DNA of 5,774 bases, taken from an uncultured Gammaproteobacteria bacterium (GTDB lineage Bacteria > Patescibacteriota > Microgenomatia > Daviesbacterales > UBA10151). Positions 547 to 5,774 of the stretch are shown piece by piece. The DNA lies in assembly GCA_964522265.1 (NCBI GenBank), contig CAZFVS010000070.1:1-5774 (forward strand), in the 5' to 3' direction. Position 1 is the stretch's first letter, and the number at the start of each line of letters is the position of its first letter. The translations under genes and the position numbers were made by a program. The notes under the pieces are model-generated. The model was given only the letters and a program-made list of their open reading frames with translations, was not told the origin of the DNA and did not search any database.

Positions 547-1638
547 ATGGAAGCACATCCTGTTCCACAAAATGTCACCAGTTTTGAATTCCATTTAGTT
601 GGGGATATGACCTTAAAACAGTTTGGGTATCTGGCTACGGGTTTGAGCTTTGCTTATCTGGTTTTTTTTATTTTTGCCACCCCGGCCCCTTATATTGCCT
701 GGCCTATTATTATCACATCCTCTTTAATAGGAATCATGTTTGCCTTCCTGCCAATTAGGGAACGTCCGCTGGATCATTGGGTGGGAGCATTTTTTAATGC
801 CATCTTTAAACCAACCCAATTTATTTATAAATCTGCTGTTGTGATAAAAGAGGATCCTTTTTTCCAAAAAAGGTTAAGTTTTTACCTTTCGCAATCAACC
901 AATGAACCATTAGGTAAACCTTCATGGGGAATCACCCCAAGTGTTTCTTTGCCTGCTTCAACACCAAGCATCAACCCACCACAACCAAACCAGCCCAAAA
1001 CCAGCCAGCCTCCTGTAGCTGAACAGCCGCCCACAAAAGAGGTTAATTTTTTTGAAAAACACAAACTACCAAGCACCAAAGACTTAAAAGAAACAGTTGA
1101 ACTTGCTAAACAGGCTCAGACGATCCAGGTAAAAATCATCGAAACAGAAAAACAGCTCAGCCAGGTAAAATCTCAGGCCTCAGAACCAGGAGCAGATCCC
1201 ACAAGATTCGAAAAAGACTTCCGTATTATTTTGGATAACCTGCAAAAACTAAACAACGAGGCTAGTGAGATTTCAAAACAATTGGCTAATCTTTCCAAAA
1301 CTCCTACAGAAAAGGTTTTTACACCTGCTATTACAGCCAAAAGTATTCCCACTATCAGGCTAACTTCGGTCGAGAATATCTTAAACGGCATCACCACTGA
1401 CTCTCAGGGGAATTACATCGAGGGGGCAATATTGGTTGCCCATGATAAACAGGGATTACCTGTAAGGGCATTAAGAACTAATAAGCTGGGTCAATTTATC
1501 GCCGCCACACCTCTCCCGAATGGTGTTTATACCTTAACCTGCGAAAAGGATAATCTTATCTTTGATACCATCAGAGTAGAACTCAACGGCCAGGTTCTGC
1601 AGCCTGTGATGATTTCAGCAAAGAAGGGTGGGGTATGA
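547..1638 (+). CDS. PrgI/VirB3-like T4SS membrane protein with long C-terminal extension (Pro-rich linker, coiled coil, CarboxypepD_reg-like beta-sandwich)
   Basis: The N-terminus (PVPQNV..FEFHLVGDMTLKQFGYLATG) is followed by a hydrophobic hairpin of two predicted TM helices (aa ~26-70, nt 622-756), as in PrgI-family/VirB3-like proteins. The gene also sits upstream of a VirB4 gene. Residues ~125-165 are P/Q/S-rich and ~178-252 are heptad-like and charged. Residues ~278-360 (nt 1378-1626) read LNGITTDSQGNYIEGAILV...TNKLGQFIAATPLPNGVYTLTCEKDNLIF...VELNGQV, which matches the carboxypeptidase-regulatory-like domain pattern. The TGA stop overlaps the next start (ATGA). Confidence 0.75.
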   Translation: MEAHPVPQNVTSFEFHLVGDMTLKQFGYLATGLSFAYLVFFIFATPAPYIAWPIIITSSLIGIMFAFLPIRERPLDHWVGAFFNAIFKPTQFIYKSAVVIKEDPFFQKRLSFYLSQSTNEPLGKPSWGITPSVSLPASTPSINPPQPNQPKTSQPPVAEQPPTKEVNFFEKHKLPSTKDLKETVELAKQAQTIQVKIIETEKQLSQVKSQASEPGADPTRFEKDFRIILDNLQKLNNEASEISKQLANLSKTPTEKVFTPAITAKSIPTIRLTSVENILNGITTDSQGNYIEGAILVAHDKQGLPVRALRTNKLGQFIAATPLPNGVYTLTCEKDNLIFDTIRVELNGQVLQPVMISAKKGGV

Positions 1639-2447
1639 ATACTACACAAAATTTTTTACCAATAAAGGATATTAGAAATGACCTGATTGTTCTAAAAGAC
1701 GGAGGTGTCGCCTGTGTGGTTAAAACTTCCGCTGTAAATTTTGGCCTGCTTTCAGAAAATGAGCAACTCGCCATAATTTCATCTTTTGCAGGTCTTTTAA
1801 ACTCTTTATCGTTTCCTATCCAGATAATGATACGTTCGAAAAGACTGGATATCTCAAGCTATCTGGAAAAGCTTATCGCCGCCCAAAACGCGCAAAAAAA
1901 CCCCTTGCTTCGGGAGATTATGATCCGCTACCGCTCTTTTATTGAAAGTGTAATTAGGGAAAACGAGGTGTTGGATAAACAATTTTATATAACTTTATCA
2001 GTCTCATACCTGGAGCTGGGAGTTATTAATGATATCGAGAAACACTTCACTAAAGCTATGACCATACTCAACCCAAGAAGAGACCATATTATAAGACAGT
2101 TAGAAAGGATTGGACTCCGGGCAATACAGTTAAATAATGAGGGGTTAACCAGGCTGTTTTATGATATTTTTAATGAGATCAAACAGGAAGAAACCCAACT
2201 ACCGGTTGTCTTCCCTAAAACCCAGCAGCAAACTTCAAACCCTACCTTACCAGCCCCTGCTCCTGTACAACCAGAGAGAAAAAACCCTCCTCCCCAACCT
2301 CAACCCCAACCTCAACCCAAACAACCTATGCCTCAACCCTTACCTCAACAAACTGCCCATCTACAACAGCCTGTTGCAGTATATTCCAGTAATCGTTCCA
2401 TCCCTTTTGTTGTTGAAGAGCTGCCTGATGTATACAGCAGTATATGA
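1635..2447 (+). CDS. Hypothetical protein with VirB4-N-terminal-domain-like region and C-terminal (PQ)n low-complexity tail
   Basis: The 270-aa ORF is coupled by ATGA overlaps at both ends. Its N-terminus (QNFLPIKDIRNDLIVLKDGG...VNFGLLSENEQLAIISSFAGLLNSLSFPIQIMIRSKRLD...KQFYITLSVSY) follows the pattern of the N-terminal domain of Gram-positive-type VirB4 proteins. It also parallels SLNISMFIYPSTSKTVLD...RLGLYITVPVQ in the adjacent VirB4. There is no Walker motif, TM helix or signal peptide. The function is inferred. Confidence 0.7.
   Translation: MNTTQNFLPIKDIRNDLIVLKDGGVACVVKTSAVNFGLLSENEQLAIISSFAGLLNSLSFPIQIMIRSKRLDISSYLEKLIAAQNAQKNPLLREIMIRYRSFIESVIRENEVLDKQFYITLSVSYLELGVINDIEKHFTKAMTILNPRRDHIIRQLERIGLRAIQLNNEGLTRLFYDIFNEIKQEETQLPVVFPKTQQQTSNPTLPAPAPVQPERKNPPPQPQPQPQPKQPMPQPLPQQTAHLQQPVAVYSSNRSIPFVVEELPDVYSSI
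2286..2352 (+). repeat. Imperfect tandem hexanucleotide repeat (cctcaa/ccccaa) encoding PPPQPQPQPQPKQPMPQPLPQQ
   Basis: Direct reading gives cct cct ccc caa cct caa ccc caa cct caa ccc aaa caa cct atg cct caa ccc tta cct caa caa. It lies inside the 1635..2447 CDS and also produces the spurious alternative-frame ORF 2161..2472. Confidence 0.8.
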
Positions 2448-4291
2448 ATATACCTTTTCTTTCAAACTCTAAATCAAAACCTCAGCCCCCAAAGTGGCTG
2501 CTGGAAAACCAGGAAGGCGGCAAGCTTTCCATCCCCGATGTTTTAGCACCGGCAGAGATCGAAATTGATTTCTCTTTTATCCGGATAAACAACTCACTCT
2601 ACCGGTCGTTTTTTGTCTCTTCCTATCCGCGTTATATTGAACCAAATTGGCTTGAACCATTAATTGATTTTGATCATTCACTCAACATTTCAATGTTTAT
2701 ATACCCATCAACTTCTAAAACAGTTCTTGATGATTTAAAGAGGAAGATAGCTGAGATGGAGGCCACAATCCAAACAGATATAGAAAGAGGTAGGGCTGTT
2801 AATCCCGCAGTACAGGTCGCCCTGGATGACGCCAGAGAGCTTCAAGACCAGCTGGTCAAAGGTGCAGAGAGGTTTTTCAGACTGGGGCTTTATATCACTG
2901 TACCTGTCCAAAAAAAAGAGCTTTTTGAAACCCTGGAGGACACATCAAAACAGGACAATTCTAAAAAAACCCGTTTTTCAAAAACAATAGAAGACCTTAA
3001 TAATGTTTCCAAACTGGTGGAATCCACCCTTGGTTCAATTTCTATTACCGCCCGTGAAACTACCTTACAGATGGAAGACGCCTTTATCTCCACCCTACCG
3101 CTGGGAATAGATAAGCTCACACTAAACCATAATATGGACACCACCTCACTTGCCACAACCTTTCCTTTTACAACCTCTGAACTGACAGCAAATGAGGGTA
3201 TAATGTATGGGATCAATGAACACAACGGCTCCCTGGTTATCTTTGACAGGTTCTCCCTTGAAAATGCCAATTCTGTAGTTTTTGCCAAATCTGGTGCCGG
3301 GAAATCTTATTTCGTTAAACTGGAAACGCTCAGGTCTTTAATGTTTAACACCCAAATCATCGTGATTGACCCAGAACATGAGTATATTAAACTGGCTGAA
3401 GCGGTCGGGGGGGAATATATTAATTTTTCTTCAGAATCCCCTGTTAAAATTAACCCTTTTGACCTGTCTAATGTCTTTGAAAGCGGTGAAAATGAACTTG
3501 GCCGGAAAATATTAACCCTAACCGGTTTTTTGAAGTTGGTTTTAGGGGAGCTGACATCATCTCAAGCAGCTGTTTTAGACAGAGCCTTGTCTGCTGCCTA
3601 CAGACTCAAGGGGATTACCATGGATGCTAAAACCCAGCATTTACCTCCACCACTCATGGAAGATCTCTATAAAGTACTTATCGGCATGGAGGAGCCTAAC
3701 GCCAAAGAGATTGCATTTAGACTGGAACGGTTTATTAAAGGATCCTTGGCCGGAATATTTTCCGCTCCTTCTAATATAAATTTAAACAGCCAACTGGTTG
3801 TTTTTTCAGTAAGGGATTTGGCTGATCAGCTCCGTCCTTTAGCGATGTACCTCATCTTAGATTATATCTGGACTAAAATAAGGACTAATTTAAAAAAAAG
3901 GCTTTTAATAGTTGATGAAGCATGGTATATGATGAAAAATGCCGACAGCGCAGAGTTCCTGGTTGAGATGGCAAAAAGAGCCAGGAAATATTACCTCGGG
4001 GTCACTACTATCACCCAGGATGTAGAGGATTTTCTGGAAGGAGACAGGGGTAAAGAGATTATTTCCAATTCTTCTATCCAGACACTCTTAAAACAGAGCC
4101 CTTCTTCGATAGATAAAATTGGCCAGGTATTTAACCTGTCAGAAGGGGAAAAACATCTGCTTTTGTCTGCCGGAGTAGGCCAAGGCCTTTTTTTTGCAGG
4201 CCCGTCACATGTAGCAATCCAGATTGTTGCTTCACCGGAAGAACACCAATTGATCACCTCCAACCCTGCTGAACTTATAGCTAAAAACTAA
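2444..4291 (+). CDS. virB4: VirB4/TraC-family type IV secretion ATPase (AAA_10/DUF87-like P-loop NTPase)
   Basis: The 615-aa ORF has Walker A AKSGAGKS (aa 281-288, nt 3284-3307) and Walker B LLIVDEAW (aa 487-494, nt 3902-3925). Downstream it has the RK-YYLGVTTITQ (sensor/arginine-finger region) and LLKQ...LS-GE motifs typical of VirB4/TraC. The N-terminal domain carries the YPRY/-WL--LI pattern. The gene lies downstream of a PrgI/VirB3-like gene. Confidence 0.93.
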   Translation: MNIPFLSNSKSKPQPPKWLLENQEGGKLSIPDVLAPAEIEIDFSFIRINNSLYRSFFVSSYPRYIEPNWLEPLIDFDHSLNISMFIYPSTSKTVLDDLKRKIAEMEATIQTDIERGRAVNPAVQVALDDARELQDQLVKGAERFFRLGLYITVPVQKKELFETLEDTSKQDNSKKTRFSKTIEDLNNVSKLVESTLGSISITARETTLQMEDAFISTLPLGIDKLTLNHNMDTTSLATTFPFTTSELTANEGIMYGINEHNGSLVIFDRFSLENANSVVFAKSGAGKSYFVKLETLRSLMFNTQIIVIDPEHEYIKLAEAVGGEYINFSSESPVKINPFDLSNVFESGENELGRKILTLTGFLKLVLGELTSSQAAVLDRALSAAYRLKGITMDAKTQHLPPPLMEDLYKVLIGMEEPNAKEIAFRLERFIKGSLAGIFSAPSNINLNSQLVVFSVRDLADQLRPLAMYLILDYIWTKIRTNLKKRLLIVDEAWYMMKNADSAEFLVEMAKRARKYYLGVTTITQDVEDFLEGDRGKEIISNSSIQTLLKQSPSSIDKIGQVFNLSEGEKHLLLSAGVGQGLFFAGPSHVAIQIVASPEEHQLITSNPAELIAKN

Positions 4292-4296
4292 CCAAA

Positions 4297-5774
4297 ATGG
4301 CTGCCCAAAACCAAGCTAACTTAAACCCTGAGCATATCAGCCTTTATAAAGAAGCCCGCAATTTTGTCTTTGATTACACCACCCACAATTCTATCTACCA
4401 AAGAAGTTTAATTGACCGCCTGATTAAACCGGGAGAGGTTTATGCCCTTTACCCGATAAAAAACATTGTATTTTTTCTTGTTAAATTATCTCCACCCCCT
4501 GAACTGCTTTTTGGCGCTAAACCACCTTTTTCTTACGTAAGGATCCATCCTTTTTTAAAATACTTTGGAGGAAAGGATATTTATAACAGGTTAAATGATA
4601 TAGCTGGCGGTAAATTCCAACCATTTTCTGACCAAACAGTGACTGAAGTTGAGGAGTTTAATAAATTACCTGAGGAGGTAAAAGATAAAAAACTGGGGGC
4701 TGAGGTTTCCAAAACAATAGGTATAATACCTACAGTCGGTATAGTACCAACCCCCAGCTTAGAAGAAAAAACACCGCCCAGAATACCCCAAAGGGTTAAT
4801 ATAGGCCGACTGCCTATCCCCTCTTTTGTTAAAGATTTAGGTGTTTGGAGTTTAATCCACACCGGAAATTTAGTAAACAGACACCCTAAGGTCTCTACGC
4901 CTTTATCTGTAGGAGGAACTGTCTGGCTTTTTATGAATGCTACAGGTCAAGGCCCGTACAGCTTGATTTCTGGATTACTTGCTGCTGCCGGAACCAGTCT
5001 TGCCATGGAATACTTGTCTGCCCCAAGACAACCTCAGCAGATCGGTGGTGAAGACAAACAATACAACAGCGGTGGCAACTTCCAGCCACCATGGCGGTCA
5101 AAGACTTCAAGGGCTTTAGGAAGGGGTGCGGGCAAGGCAGGGGCTAGGGCTGCAGGAGGATTGACCAGAGCAGCTGTACCGCTTTTGGCAAACCCGGTAA
5201 CCTGGGTTGTGATCGGAATAATTATTTTTATTCTCCTTTTCTTTTTTCTGATATTTAATAAAAATGCCTCTATTTTTCCGCCTTTTGGGGAATTTACTGC
5301 CACAACCGCCACCCCAAGCGCCCAACTTAAAATAGTTAAAACTGCACCACCCCAGGTGCCGAACAGCAGTCTAATCCCCTATGATATTACTGTCATATAT
5401 ACCGGTACGGGTACTGCTGATATTGAGGTTTATGATAAAGTGCCGGAGAAAACAGAGTTTGTAAGCAGTAATCCAGATGTTGCCCCTGATTCAAACGGCA
5501 TTCTGAAGTGGAATCTTTTTAAAACACCTTCTAATACACCTCAAAAAATGACTTTTACGGTTAAACCTACCCAGGATGATATTTATGTCCAAAATACCGA
5601 TTATGGTGCCAAAATAACAAGTGTTACCGGGGGGGGAGGCGGCGGCGAGATAGCTGCCTGCACCTTCTTCAGGGAAGGAGATACTACTGTAACTGGCGGA
5701 GTATCAGGATTAAAATTTAATATACCTGAGTGGCCTGCTTTGATAAATGAAGTTACTTTAAAAGTCGGTGTCCC
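4297..5774 (+). CDS. 3'-truncated ORF (not in supplied track): single-pass membrane protein with ~300-aa cytoplasmic N-domain, basic R/G/A patch, TM helix, extracellular DUF11/CARDB-like domain and Gly6 linker
   Basis: I translated frame 1 by hand from ATG 4297, the first ATG after the in-frame stop at 4282-4284 and 5 nt after the virB4 stop. It stays open for 492 codons to the window edge. The basic patch WRSKTSRALGRGAGKAGARAAGGLTR precedes the TM helix VTWVVIGIIIFILLFFFLIF (aa 301-320, nt 5197-5256), so positive-inside topology puts the C-terminus outside. Nt 5326-5628 encode LKIVKTAPPQV..LIPYDITVIYTGTGTADIEVYDKVPEKTEFVSSNPD...GILKWNL....QKMTFTVKP, which fits the DUF11 'conserved repeat domain' pattern. 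The start codon is inferred, with no obvious SD. Confidence 0.8.
   Translation, partial: MAAQNQANLNPEHISLYKEARNFVFDYTTHNSIYQRSLIDRLIKPGEVYALYPIKNIVFFLVKLSPPPELLFGAKPPFSYVRIHPFLKYFGGKDIYNRLNDIAGGKFQPFSDQTVTEVEEFNKLPEEVKDKKLGAEVSKTIGIIPTVGIVPTPSLEEKTPPRIPQRVNIGRLPIPSFVKDLGVWSLIHTGNLVNRHPKVSTPLSVGGTVWLFMNATGQGPYSLISGLLAAAGTSLAMEYLSAPRQPQQIGGEDKQYNSGGNFQPPWRSKTSRALGRGAGKAGARAAGGLTRAAVPLLANPVTWVVIGIIIFILLFFFLIFNKNASIFPPFGEFTATTATPSAQLKIVKTAPPQVPNSSLIPYDITVIYTGTGTADIEVYDKVPEKTEFVSSNPDVAPDSNGILKWNLFKTPSNTPQKMTFTVKPTQDDIYVQNTDYGAKITSVTGGGGGGEIAACTFFREGDTTVTGGVSGLKFNIPEWPALINEVTLKVGV
5629..5636 (+). repeat. G8 homopolymer tract inside the 4297..>5774 CDS (first part of the Gly6 linker)
   Basis: Read directly: acc ggg ggg gga ggc ggc ggc. 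By eye it is the longest G run in this AT-leaning window. Confidence 0.9.

Follow-up and report, generated by a model that had tools for sequence, protein, structure and literature searches.

RESULTS

Identity and gene layout of the module

Contig CAZFVS010000070.1 (GenBank assembly GCA_964522265.1) is a 5,774-nt stretch of DNA recorded under the name of an uncultured Gammaproteobacteria bacterium. The window analyzed here is this entire contig, and both of its ends are contig ends. Four consecutive genes, from position 547 to position 5,774, very probably form the cytoplasmic-membrane and energizing core of a chromosomal type IV secretion system (T4SS) of the Patescibacteria type, together with a wall-breaching subunit; the system would descend from monoderm MPF_FATA machinery and belong to a Candidatus Daviesbacteria genome. 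An initial annotation, made from the letters of the window, had already proposed a VirB4-centered T4SS module of the Gram-positive type and had pointed to the Candidate Phyla Radiation (CPR)/Patescibacteria. The profile matches agree with the type (MPF_FATA), and the closest homologues, which come from Candidatus Daviesbacteria, agree with the source. Most of the features that had been called atypical turned out to have ordinary explanations, chiefly the short extent of the contig.

Five open reading frames (ORFs) lie on the + strand, namely ORF1 (170-535), ORF2 (547-1638), ORF3 (1635-2447), ORF4 (2444-4291), and ORF5 (4297->5774). A 4-nt ATGA overlap was found at both the ORF2/ORF3 and the ORF3/ORF4 junctions, and a gap of 5 nt separates the ORF4 stop from the ORF5 start, in line with the four consecutive same-strand genes that had been annotated. 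Their annotated identities also held, as profile matches assigned ORF2 to ORF5 to a PrgI/VirB3-like protein, a VirB4 N-domain-like protein, a VirB4 ATPase, and a membrane-anchored DUF11 protein, respectively. Terminator-like sites in the window showed no excess over shuffled sequence, and tRNA and Rfam scans of the window gave no match.

For comparison, 83 Microgenomatia loci (L001-L083) were used, comprising L001-L003 and 80 loci from a VirB4 profile search of GTDB species genomes. The set includes Daviesbacteria, Curtissbacteria, Gottesmanbacteria, and Woesebacteria, among others, and L001-L054 are Daviesbacteria-like loci. L001 (GCA_016186955.1) is the closest long contig, and its VirB4 is 86% identical to ORF4. 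The next-best ORF4 homologues are 70-95% identical, and every named one among the matches listed is from Candidatus Daviesbacteria, which places the source in the class Microgenomatia of the CPR/Patescibacteria. The gene order PrgI-TrsD-VirB4, represented by ORF2 to ORF4 in the window, was found in nearly all 83 loci, and in about 75 of them the PrgI gene immediately precedes TrsD-VirB4.

A VirB4 encoded by two genes

ORF4 (2444..4291, + strand) encodes a VirB4 ATPase of 615 aa without the first ~180 residues of a canonical VirB4. It matched the NCBIfam model NF045971 (CD1110 VirB4) with 373.7 bits, above the cut-off of 325, over model positions 183-734; the match begins at position 183, so that the ORF4 polypeptide does not carry a complete VirB4 N-terminal domain. 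In Pfam, P-loop_TraG (E 1.5e-28), AAA_10, and DUF87 were all above gathering, and the Thermoanaerobacter VirB4 C-terminal domain (PDB 4ag5) was matched at E 2.9e-48. The Walker A motif GAGKS (aa 284-288; 3293..3307, + strand) and the Walker B region LLIVDEAW (aa 487-494; 3899..3925, + strand) can be read from the sequence. In an alignment of 12 VirB4 homologues, G284, G286, K287, and S288 of the former and V490, D491, E492, A493, and W494 of the latter are invariant. The short length is shared by relatives, since all 120 VirB4 homologues among the matches listed are 567-630 aa long. A HerA/FtsK identity, which the initial annotation had named as the placement to be checked, was rejected for ORF4: the DUF87 match reflects the shared P-loop only, and the VirB4 models score far higher.

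The missing N-terminal part is found in the preceding gene. ORF3 (1635..2447, + strand) encodes a TrsD-like protein of 270 aa that NCBIfam matches identify as a detached VirB4 N-terminal domain. It matched NF045975 (Mbov_0397 VirB4) over positions 102-283 (E 2e-9), NF045971 over positions 2-173 (E 1.5e-5), and NF041427 (TrsD/TraD) at E 2.6e-6, with 27.4 bits against a cut-off of 200. When residues 1-190 of ORF3 were joined to ORF4 and the fusion was rescanned against the profiles, it matched NF045971 over positions 2-733 of 752 in one stretch, and the score increased from 373.7 bits for ORF4 alone to 391.4 bits. TIGR00929 was likewise matched in one stretch, over positions 8-726 of 792, with 125.4 bits compared with 111.3 bits for ORF4 alone. 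At the level of profile alignment, these matches show that the two ORFs, taken together, run colinear with a single complete VirB4 that is encoded as two polypeptides. The protein that had been annotated as an "extra" VirB4 N-domain-like component between VirB3 and VirB4 is thus not an addition; the fusion match identifies it as the detached N-terminal ~180 residues of VirB4 itself.

The folded N-domain of ORF3 (aa 1-190; 1635..2204, + strand), in which every hidden Markov model (HMM) and BLAST match falls, is conserved in 79 of the 82 compared loci. It is followed by a tail of ~80 residues, which contains a variable P/Q-rich linker (2205-2399, + strand) and, by locus comparison, a conserved C-terminal peptide PFVVEEL (aa 257-263; 2403..2423, + strand) that could be a docking motif. 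Almost all of the Daviesbacteria-like loci have a PFVVEEL-like peptide, and a GYTKPLVEG-like tail takes its place in Gottesmanbacteria-like loci. ORF3 had no match in the local Pfam copy, PF26593 included; its orthologues carry a precomputed PF26593 TraC-like annotation. The ORF3 family profile found no VirB4 among the PDB sequences, only chance matches at E ~0.03.

The ORF3/ORF4 split was found in nearly all of the 83 loci. In addition, tblastn with ORF3 detected separate genes of ~180-270 aa just upstream of VirB4 on 113 Firmicutes plasmids (best E 5e-19). The recurrence of the split in the loci, the tail that ORF3 has of its own, and the counterparts on Firmicutes plasmids argue that it is not a sequencing artefact, and the same three observations ruled out a frameshifted pseudogene. 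In the literature, this protein goes by the name TrsD; known from the pGO1 subclass of MPF_FATA, it has remote homology to the VirB4 N-terminus. Among the T4SS components found in Patescibacteria, TrsD is the commonest (2272 hits), and in Southlakia epibionticum it is essential (PMC12102498).

A PrgI/VirB3-like protein with a C-terminal β-sandwich

ORF2 (547..1638, + strand) encodes a PrgI/VirB3-like membrane anchor of 363 aa with a long C-terminal extension. Residues 5-93 matched positions 1-90 of the 91 in PF12666 (PrgI) at E 2.2e-6, with 28.5 bits against a gathering threshold of 27, and NCBI labels its orthologues as "PrgI family protein". A Kyte-Doolittle scan for hydrophobic helices revealed a transmembrane (TM) hairpin at 622..750 (+ strand), with TM1 at aa 26-44, TM2 at aa 50-68, and a 5-residue loop between them. 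The PrgI/VirB3 similarity on which the annotated module depended is therefore present, both in the family match above gathering and in the hairpin. However, the protein does not have the typical small size of PrgI (~100-120 aa with no added domains), as three extra parts follow the hairpin.

An AlphaFold2 (AF2) model built on 119 homologues, with a mean predicted local distance difference test (pLDDT) score of 80.9, divides ORF2 into four parts. The TM hairpin is modeled as helices 10-43 and 48-66. The second part is a Pro/Gln-rich linker (aa 120-175; 904..1071, + strand) that is predicted to be disordered (pLDDT <55) and showed no detectable conservation among the compared loci. Since the ORF2 homologues span 297-823 aa, the stretch between the hairpin and the C-terminal domain is very variable in length. 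The third part is a helical hairpin or coiled coil (aa 177-249; 1075..1293, + strand), modeled as helices 177-211 and 218-249 with pLDDT >90, and it is kept in Daviesbacteria-like loci only (47 by phmmer, 44 with the BLASTP coverage filter). The fourth part is a C-terminal β-sandwich (aa 270-360; 1354..1626, + strand) with a CnaB/transthyretin-like fold and a pLDDT of 92-97.

Several results bear on the β-sandwich. Foldseek matched it to a CnaB2 domain (8bdw), the B. anthracis TIE protein (6fwv), and the transthyretin-like domain of carboxypeptidase D (5aq0), all at E ~1e-4, and Pfam CarboxypepD_reg gave a weak match, under gathering, to residues 279-336 (22.3 bits). In 77 of the 83 loci, the PrgI protein ends in this domain. 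In the Daviesbacteria-like loci, its median identity is 60%, compared with 57% for the PrgI TM region, 57.5% for the TrsD N-domain, and 73.5% for the VirB4 ATPase domain, so that its conservation is on a par with the rest of the core machine. On the evidence of the model, the sandwich is real.

To predict the topology of ORF2, we counted the mean number of Lys and Arg residues (K+R) around the TM helices in the 119 homologues. The values were 1.0 for the N-flank of the hairpin, 0.27 for the loop, and 1.9 for the C-flank. With two TM helices only, this pattern predicts that both termini are inside the cell (N-in/C-in). VirB3 anchors the cytoplasmic VirB4 and in some systems is fused to its N-terminus (PMC12102498), from which a cytoplasmic C-terminus of VirB3 would also follow. 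Taken together, the charge pattern and the VirB3 precedent make a cytoplasmic β-sandwich the more probable prediction than a surface one. CnaB-like folds are usually extracellular, which weighs against this placement. Thus, of the "surface β-sandwich" that had been ascribed to the VirB3-like protein, the sandwich is borne out by the AF2 model and Foldseek, and the surface location is made doubtful by the K+R topology, the VirB3 precedent, and the core-like conservation.

An envelope protein that runs into a lytic transglycosylase-like domain

ORF5 (4297..5774, + strand), whose translation exceeds 492 aa and is cut at the contig end, is a membrane-anchored, hypervariable envelope protein; its L001 orthologue has 647 aa. 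Its one strong TM helix, the anchor (aa 301-319; 5197..5253, + strand), has a hydropathy of 3.17 and is preceded by a K/R-rich segment, WRSKTSRALGRGAGKAGARAAGGLTR. Because this stretch precedes the helix, the positive-inside rule predicts that the part beyond the TM helix is outside the cell (N-in/C-out). The ectodomain contains a DUF11 (CLIPPER) β domain (aa 344-432; 5326..5592, + strand), matched by PF01345 at E 3.3e-5 with 24.6 bits, a score equal to gathering; the L001 orthologue reaches 27.8 bits.

The last 42 residues of ORF5 are identical to residues 457-498 of the L001 orthologue, and by this identity they make up the start of a divergent SLT-type lytic transglycosylase domain (5647..5772, + strand). 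The window stops ~12 residues ahead of the catalytic Glu. Searches of PDB and Pfam with the single sequence of the L001 C-terminal domain gave chance DARPin matches and no family. An iterated HMM seeded with this domain recovered an SLT-like family of 30 envelope proteins from 30 loci, and nearly all of their genes lie directly downstream of virB4. In the family alignment, Glu, Gly, Gln, and Tyr are invariant, in the pattern RVE(S/C) / G.MQ / Y, which fits the ES / GxMQ / Y motifs of family-1 lytic transglycosylases. Pfam SLT was matched by 22 of the 30 members (best E 3e-8), and SLT_2 by two of the 30. The family profile found weak PDB matches (E 0.02-2), mostly to lytic transglycosylases and goose-type (g-type) lysozymes, and these aligned at the Glu and at GLMQ. 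As judged from these alignments, the window holds the start of a lytic transglycosylase-like domain. The earlier statement that the envelope protein carries a DUF11 domain rather than a hydrolase thus reflects the contig end, beyond which the L001 orthologue runs on into the SLT-like domain.

ORF5 has a membrane anchor, and its gene adjoins virB4, two features of VirB1/PrgK/TraG-type hydrolases. Its N-terminal 300 aa (4297-5196), predicted to be cytoplasmic, were detected in L001 only; its ectodomain, with a median identity of ~34%, was detected in eight loci only, all Daviesbacteria-like. Across L001-L083, the product of the gene directly after virB4 is in every case a large protein of 500-1500 aa and a hypervariable mosaic, in which DUF11, SLT-like, and C39-like modules are shuffled among lineages.

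Flanks of the module in related loci

In the longer loci, the upstream side contains between one and five PF18895 (T4SS_pilin) genes. After these comes the gene for a polytopic protein of ~500-600 aa, which has six hydrophobic segments. The polytopic gene lies at 2273-4084 in L001 and has counterparts in about 50 loci. By BLASTP, the L001 protein matched a syntenic Pontibacillus protein (E 1e-8), which itself hits TrbL (E 2e-4). On these similarities, the upstream polytopic protein is a divergent VirB6 candidate. On the downstream side, the protein of 500-1500 aa is followed in some loci by Peptidase_C39_2 or Amidase_2 proteins, then by small TM-anchored Big_5 proteins, and finally by dnaN, dnaA, and rpmH. 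The pilin array and the proximity to dnaA/dnaN are present in L001 and most other orthologous loci. The last gene before dnaN (14873-15358 in L001) encodes a TM-anchored protein of ~150 aa with a weak Big_5 (Ig-like) match, and this protein is kept in nearly all Daviesbacteria-like loci.

Profile scans of the window proteins found no relaxase, VirD4, or VirB6, as had been noted before; since the window covers one contig in full, little can be concluded from a gene that it lacks. For VirB6, that absence does not carry over to the relatives, in which the candidate lies upstream. The families listed within 10 kb in L001-L003 include no relaxase, type IV coupling protein (T4CP), or integrase. The relaxase and VirD4/TcpA coupling protein that define a conjugative T4SS are thus found neither in the window nor in these flanks, and a complete integrative and conjugative element (ICE) or plasmid conjugation operon, which the initial annotation had held against its own proposal, was not seen. 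The module had been described as "minimal", which proved to be an artefact of the contig ends, as the relatives flank the triad with pilins, the polytopic VirB6 candidate, and hydrolases.

The title "uncultured Gammaproteobacteria bacterium" recurs on many related contigs of metagenome-assembled genomes (L004, L005, L007, and others), and that of L074 reads "Candidatus Bathyarchaeia archaeon". These contigs carry the Daviesbacteria-type T4SS-dnaN-dnaA locus with a VirB4 identity of 60-78%, and their record names seem to be placeholders or taxonomic mislabels.

Upstream of the module, ORF1 (170-535) encodes a four-helix-bundle protein of the 23S_rRNA_IVP family (Pfam E 1.3e-37). It is flanked by an 18-nt inverted repeat (146-163 / 517-534, 89% complementary), and its GC content is 0.33, compared with ~0.41 in the T4SS genes. 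IVP homologues occupy differing intergenic sites of the same cluster in relatives. An IVP gene lies upstream of PrgI in L013, L017, L024, L040, and L055; in L007 it is on the minus strand between VirB4 and ORF5, and L041 has two copies on either side of the PrgI gene, one of them between PrgI and TrsD. The ORF1 gene thus behaves like a small mobile insertion.

DISCUSSION

A T4SS core with a proposed role in an epibiotic lifestyle

According to the above results, the following mechanism can be proposed. PrgI (ORF2) would anchor the TrsD-VirB4 ATPase assembly at the membrane. ORF5, in its N-in/C-out orientation, would offer its DUF11 and SLT domains to the wall and open the peptidoglycan locally; judging from relatives, it would continue into a full SLT domain and be an analogue of VirB1/PrgK/TraG. 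The complete genome is expected, again from relatives, to contain a VirB2-like pilin array and the polytopic VirB6 candidate upstream, and wall hydrolases, small Ig-like membrane proteins, and then dnaN-dnaA downstream. Powered by VirB4, a VirB2-like pilus or channel would be assembled through the VirB6-like pore, towards a host cell, and the literature suggests that the machine would serve an epibiotic lifestyle by protein export or by uptake of host macromolecules.

Published work on relatives is in agreement with this proposal. The Patescibacteria VirB4 clade is nested in MPF_FATA and is accompanied by TrsD, PrgI, VirB2 arrays, and dnaA proximity, and the position next to dnaA has been described in Microgenomatia (PMC12102498). 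In S. epibionticum, the T4SS, pilins included, is essential for epibiotic growth on the host and has no recognizable coupling protein or relaxase (PMC10633639). A further paper (PMC12857230) and a 2026 preprint, which observed tubular structures at a parasite-host interface, lead in a similar direction. In Patescibacteria, relaxases are almost never near the T4SS, and T4CP homologues are located elsewhere and are non-essential (PMC12102498). As neither a relaxase nor a coupling protein lies near the module in the relatives, the machine is probably not a conjugation apparatus, which the initial annotation had likewise suggested.

Several observations weigh against this interpretation. ORF3 scores under the curated cut-off in each of the three NCBIfam models, and its AF2 model, built on a 5-sequence alignment, has a pLDDT of 44. 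TrbL/VirB6 was matched weakly by three of 30 polytopic members (best E 0.0015). The SLT-like domain of L001 has no direct Pfam match, and Cys replaces the Ser of its ES motif (EC); for these two reasons, lytic activity can only be inferred. The proposed function is drawn by analogy from a distant Saccharimonadia relative rather than from Daviesbacteria. Finally, a relaxase or coupling protein may lie elsewhere in the genome, and VirD4 homologues do occur in many Patescibacteria genomes, far from virB4 (PMC12102498).

Two of the other explanations that we weighed are very improbable. One holds that the genes belong to a conjugative element (ICE or plasmid) from a monoderm host, or to its decayed remnant, which moves or once moved DNA. 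Outside the CPR, ORF3 and ORF4 indeed have their closest relatives on Firmicutes plasmids and in the ICE-type VirB4 families CD1110 and Mbov_0397, and the gene order is the same as on a Pontibacillus plasmid. However, the 83 loci, from several Microgenomatia lineages, occupy the same chromosomal site beside dnaN-dnaA-rpmH; VirB4 identity is 59-78% over the retrieved Microgenomatia loci, and the published VirB4 tree tracks taxonomy (PMC12102498). The lack of listed relaxase, T4CP, and integrase genes around L001-L003 also argues against conjugation, as does the finding of relaxases in only 103 of 3035 Patescibacteria genomes (PMC12102498). The probability of the other, a truly minimal stand-alone apparatus of four genes without pilin, VirB6, or hydrolase, is lower still, bordering on negligible. 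It would account for the fact that the 5774-base window shows no other component, but the window spans just one short contig from end to end, the missing parts lie within 10 kb in L001 and the other loci, and ORF5 is cut 42 residues into a hydrolase domain.

An import device for host DNA, RNA, or nucleotides, comparable to the DNA-importing Ced system of archaea and offsetting missing nucleotide biosynthesis, deserves more weight, although we still consider it unlikely. Weak partial matches to CedB were obtained with ORF4 (E 8e-12) and with the ORF3-ORF4 fusion (E 4.9e-14), but they cover ~70 residues of the shared P-loop. A review has speculated on uptake via the T4SS pilus (PMC12857230), and the 2026 preprint on tubular structures at the host interface proposes RNA feeding and ties it to VirB4 monophyly. 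Against import stands the finding that loss of comEC-dependent DNA uptake left the viability of S. epibionticum unaffected (PMC12857230). Import concerns the direction of transport within the preferred explanation, that of a Patescibacteria-type T4SS core, and would leave the identity of the module the same.

An extension of the T4SS reading is doubtful and offered with considerable reserve. In it, the β-sandwich of PrgI, on its linker of very variable length, and the acidic-hydrophobic PFVVEEL peptide of TrsD, on its P/Q-rich linker, would build a docking platform on the cytoplasmic side of the split VirB4 and, as the coupling protein is missing, take over the recruitment of substrates or regulators; the hypervariable SLT-bearing protein after virB4 would be the VirB1 of this class of systems, unrecognized before.

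Comparison with known systems

One likeness is to the VirB3-VirB4 pair of Gram-negative MPF_T systems, TrwM/TrwK of R388 (PDB 7o41). The P-loop domain of ORF4 matched TrwK at E 6e-5, and the division into an anchor and an ATPase is shared; the relationship is very distant, and the ORF3 family profile did not match TrwK in PDB. The R388 type also differs in that outer-membrane core components are absent here, as expected for a monoderm. With prgI-prgJ-prgK of pCF10, the locus shares the order of a VirB3-like protein, VirB4, and a membrane-anchored wall hydrolase, and ORF2 is in the PrgI Pfam family. PrgK presumably carries LytM, SLT, and CHAP domains and no DUF11. In pCF10, however, VirB4 is one full-length protein, PrgJ, that lacks a TrsD-type split, and TrsD is found only in the pGO1 subclass (PMC12102498).

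Further counterparts are TrsC-TrsD-TrsE of pGO1/pSK41 and the modules on Firmicutes plasmids, which share the order of a VirB3-like protein, a TrsD-like protein, a VirB4 of ~620 aa, and a large peptidoglycan hydrolase. The Pontibacillus plasmid NZ_CP062975 encodes two pilins, a VirB6-like protein (779 aa), a PrgI-like protein (116 aa), a TrsD-like protein (274 aa), a CD1110 VirB4 (621 aa), and a hydrolase. Its pilin-like PF18895 genes and VirB6-like protein lie upstream, as in the Microgenomatia loci, and the 274-aa protein is 29.5% identical to ORF3 (E 5e-19). In contrast to ORF2 and ORF5, its PrgI has no C-terminal extension, and its hydrolase has M23 and NlpC/P60 domains rather than SLT. 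The Daviesbacteria cluster differs from these plasmid modules in being chromosomal and origin-proximal, with no relaxase or T4CP listed within 10 kb in L001-L003. The cluster owes its architecture to monoderm conjugation modules that bear TrsD and resemble the pGO1 subclass.

The system itself is already known (PMC10633639, PMC12102498, PMC12857230), and the present details refine it rather than define a new kind. The Patescibacteria-clade T4SS (SEML1_0006-0019 in Wang et al. 2023; 3035 genomes in Quinonero-Coronel et al. 2025) shares with the window the Patescibacteria VirB4, the adjacent TrsD, and PrgI/VirB3, and it shares with the orthologous loci the VirB2-like arrays, the proximity to dnaA/dnaN/rpmH/rnpA, and the lack of a nearby relaxase or T4CP. 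This T4SS is the first shown to be essential for its own bacterium and may build a pilus in a monoderm. The refinements comprise the C-terminal sandwich of PrgI, the SLT domain in the variable protein after virB4, the near-universal PrgI-TrsD-VirB4 triad, and the PFVVEEL tail of TrsD. They touch Microgenomatia, where the 2025 survey found few VirB1, VirB3, and VirB6 near virB4 (PMC12102498). In that survey, VirB3 was near virB4 in 22.6% of the Microgenomatia hits, whereas PrgI adjoins TrsD-VirB4 almost everywhere in the present set; VirB6 and VirB1 homologues were scarce there, whereas an SLT domain in 30 loci and a polytopic candidate after the pilins were found here. CarboxypepD, PF13620, DUF11, and SLT do not occur in the main text of the survey (PMC12102498). 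These refinements could guide structural or genetic work and leave the overall picture unchanged: set beside the known Patescibacteria T4SS, the window is one more copy of a system already surveyed in about 2400 genomes.

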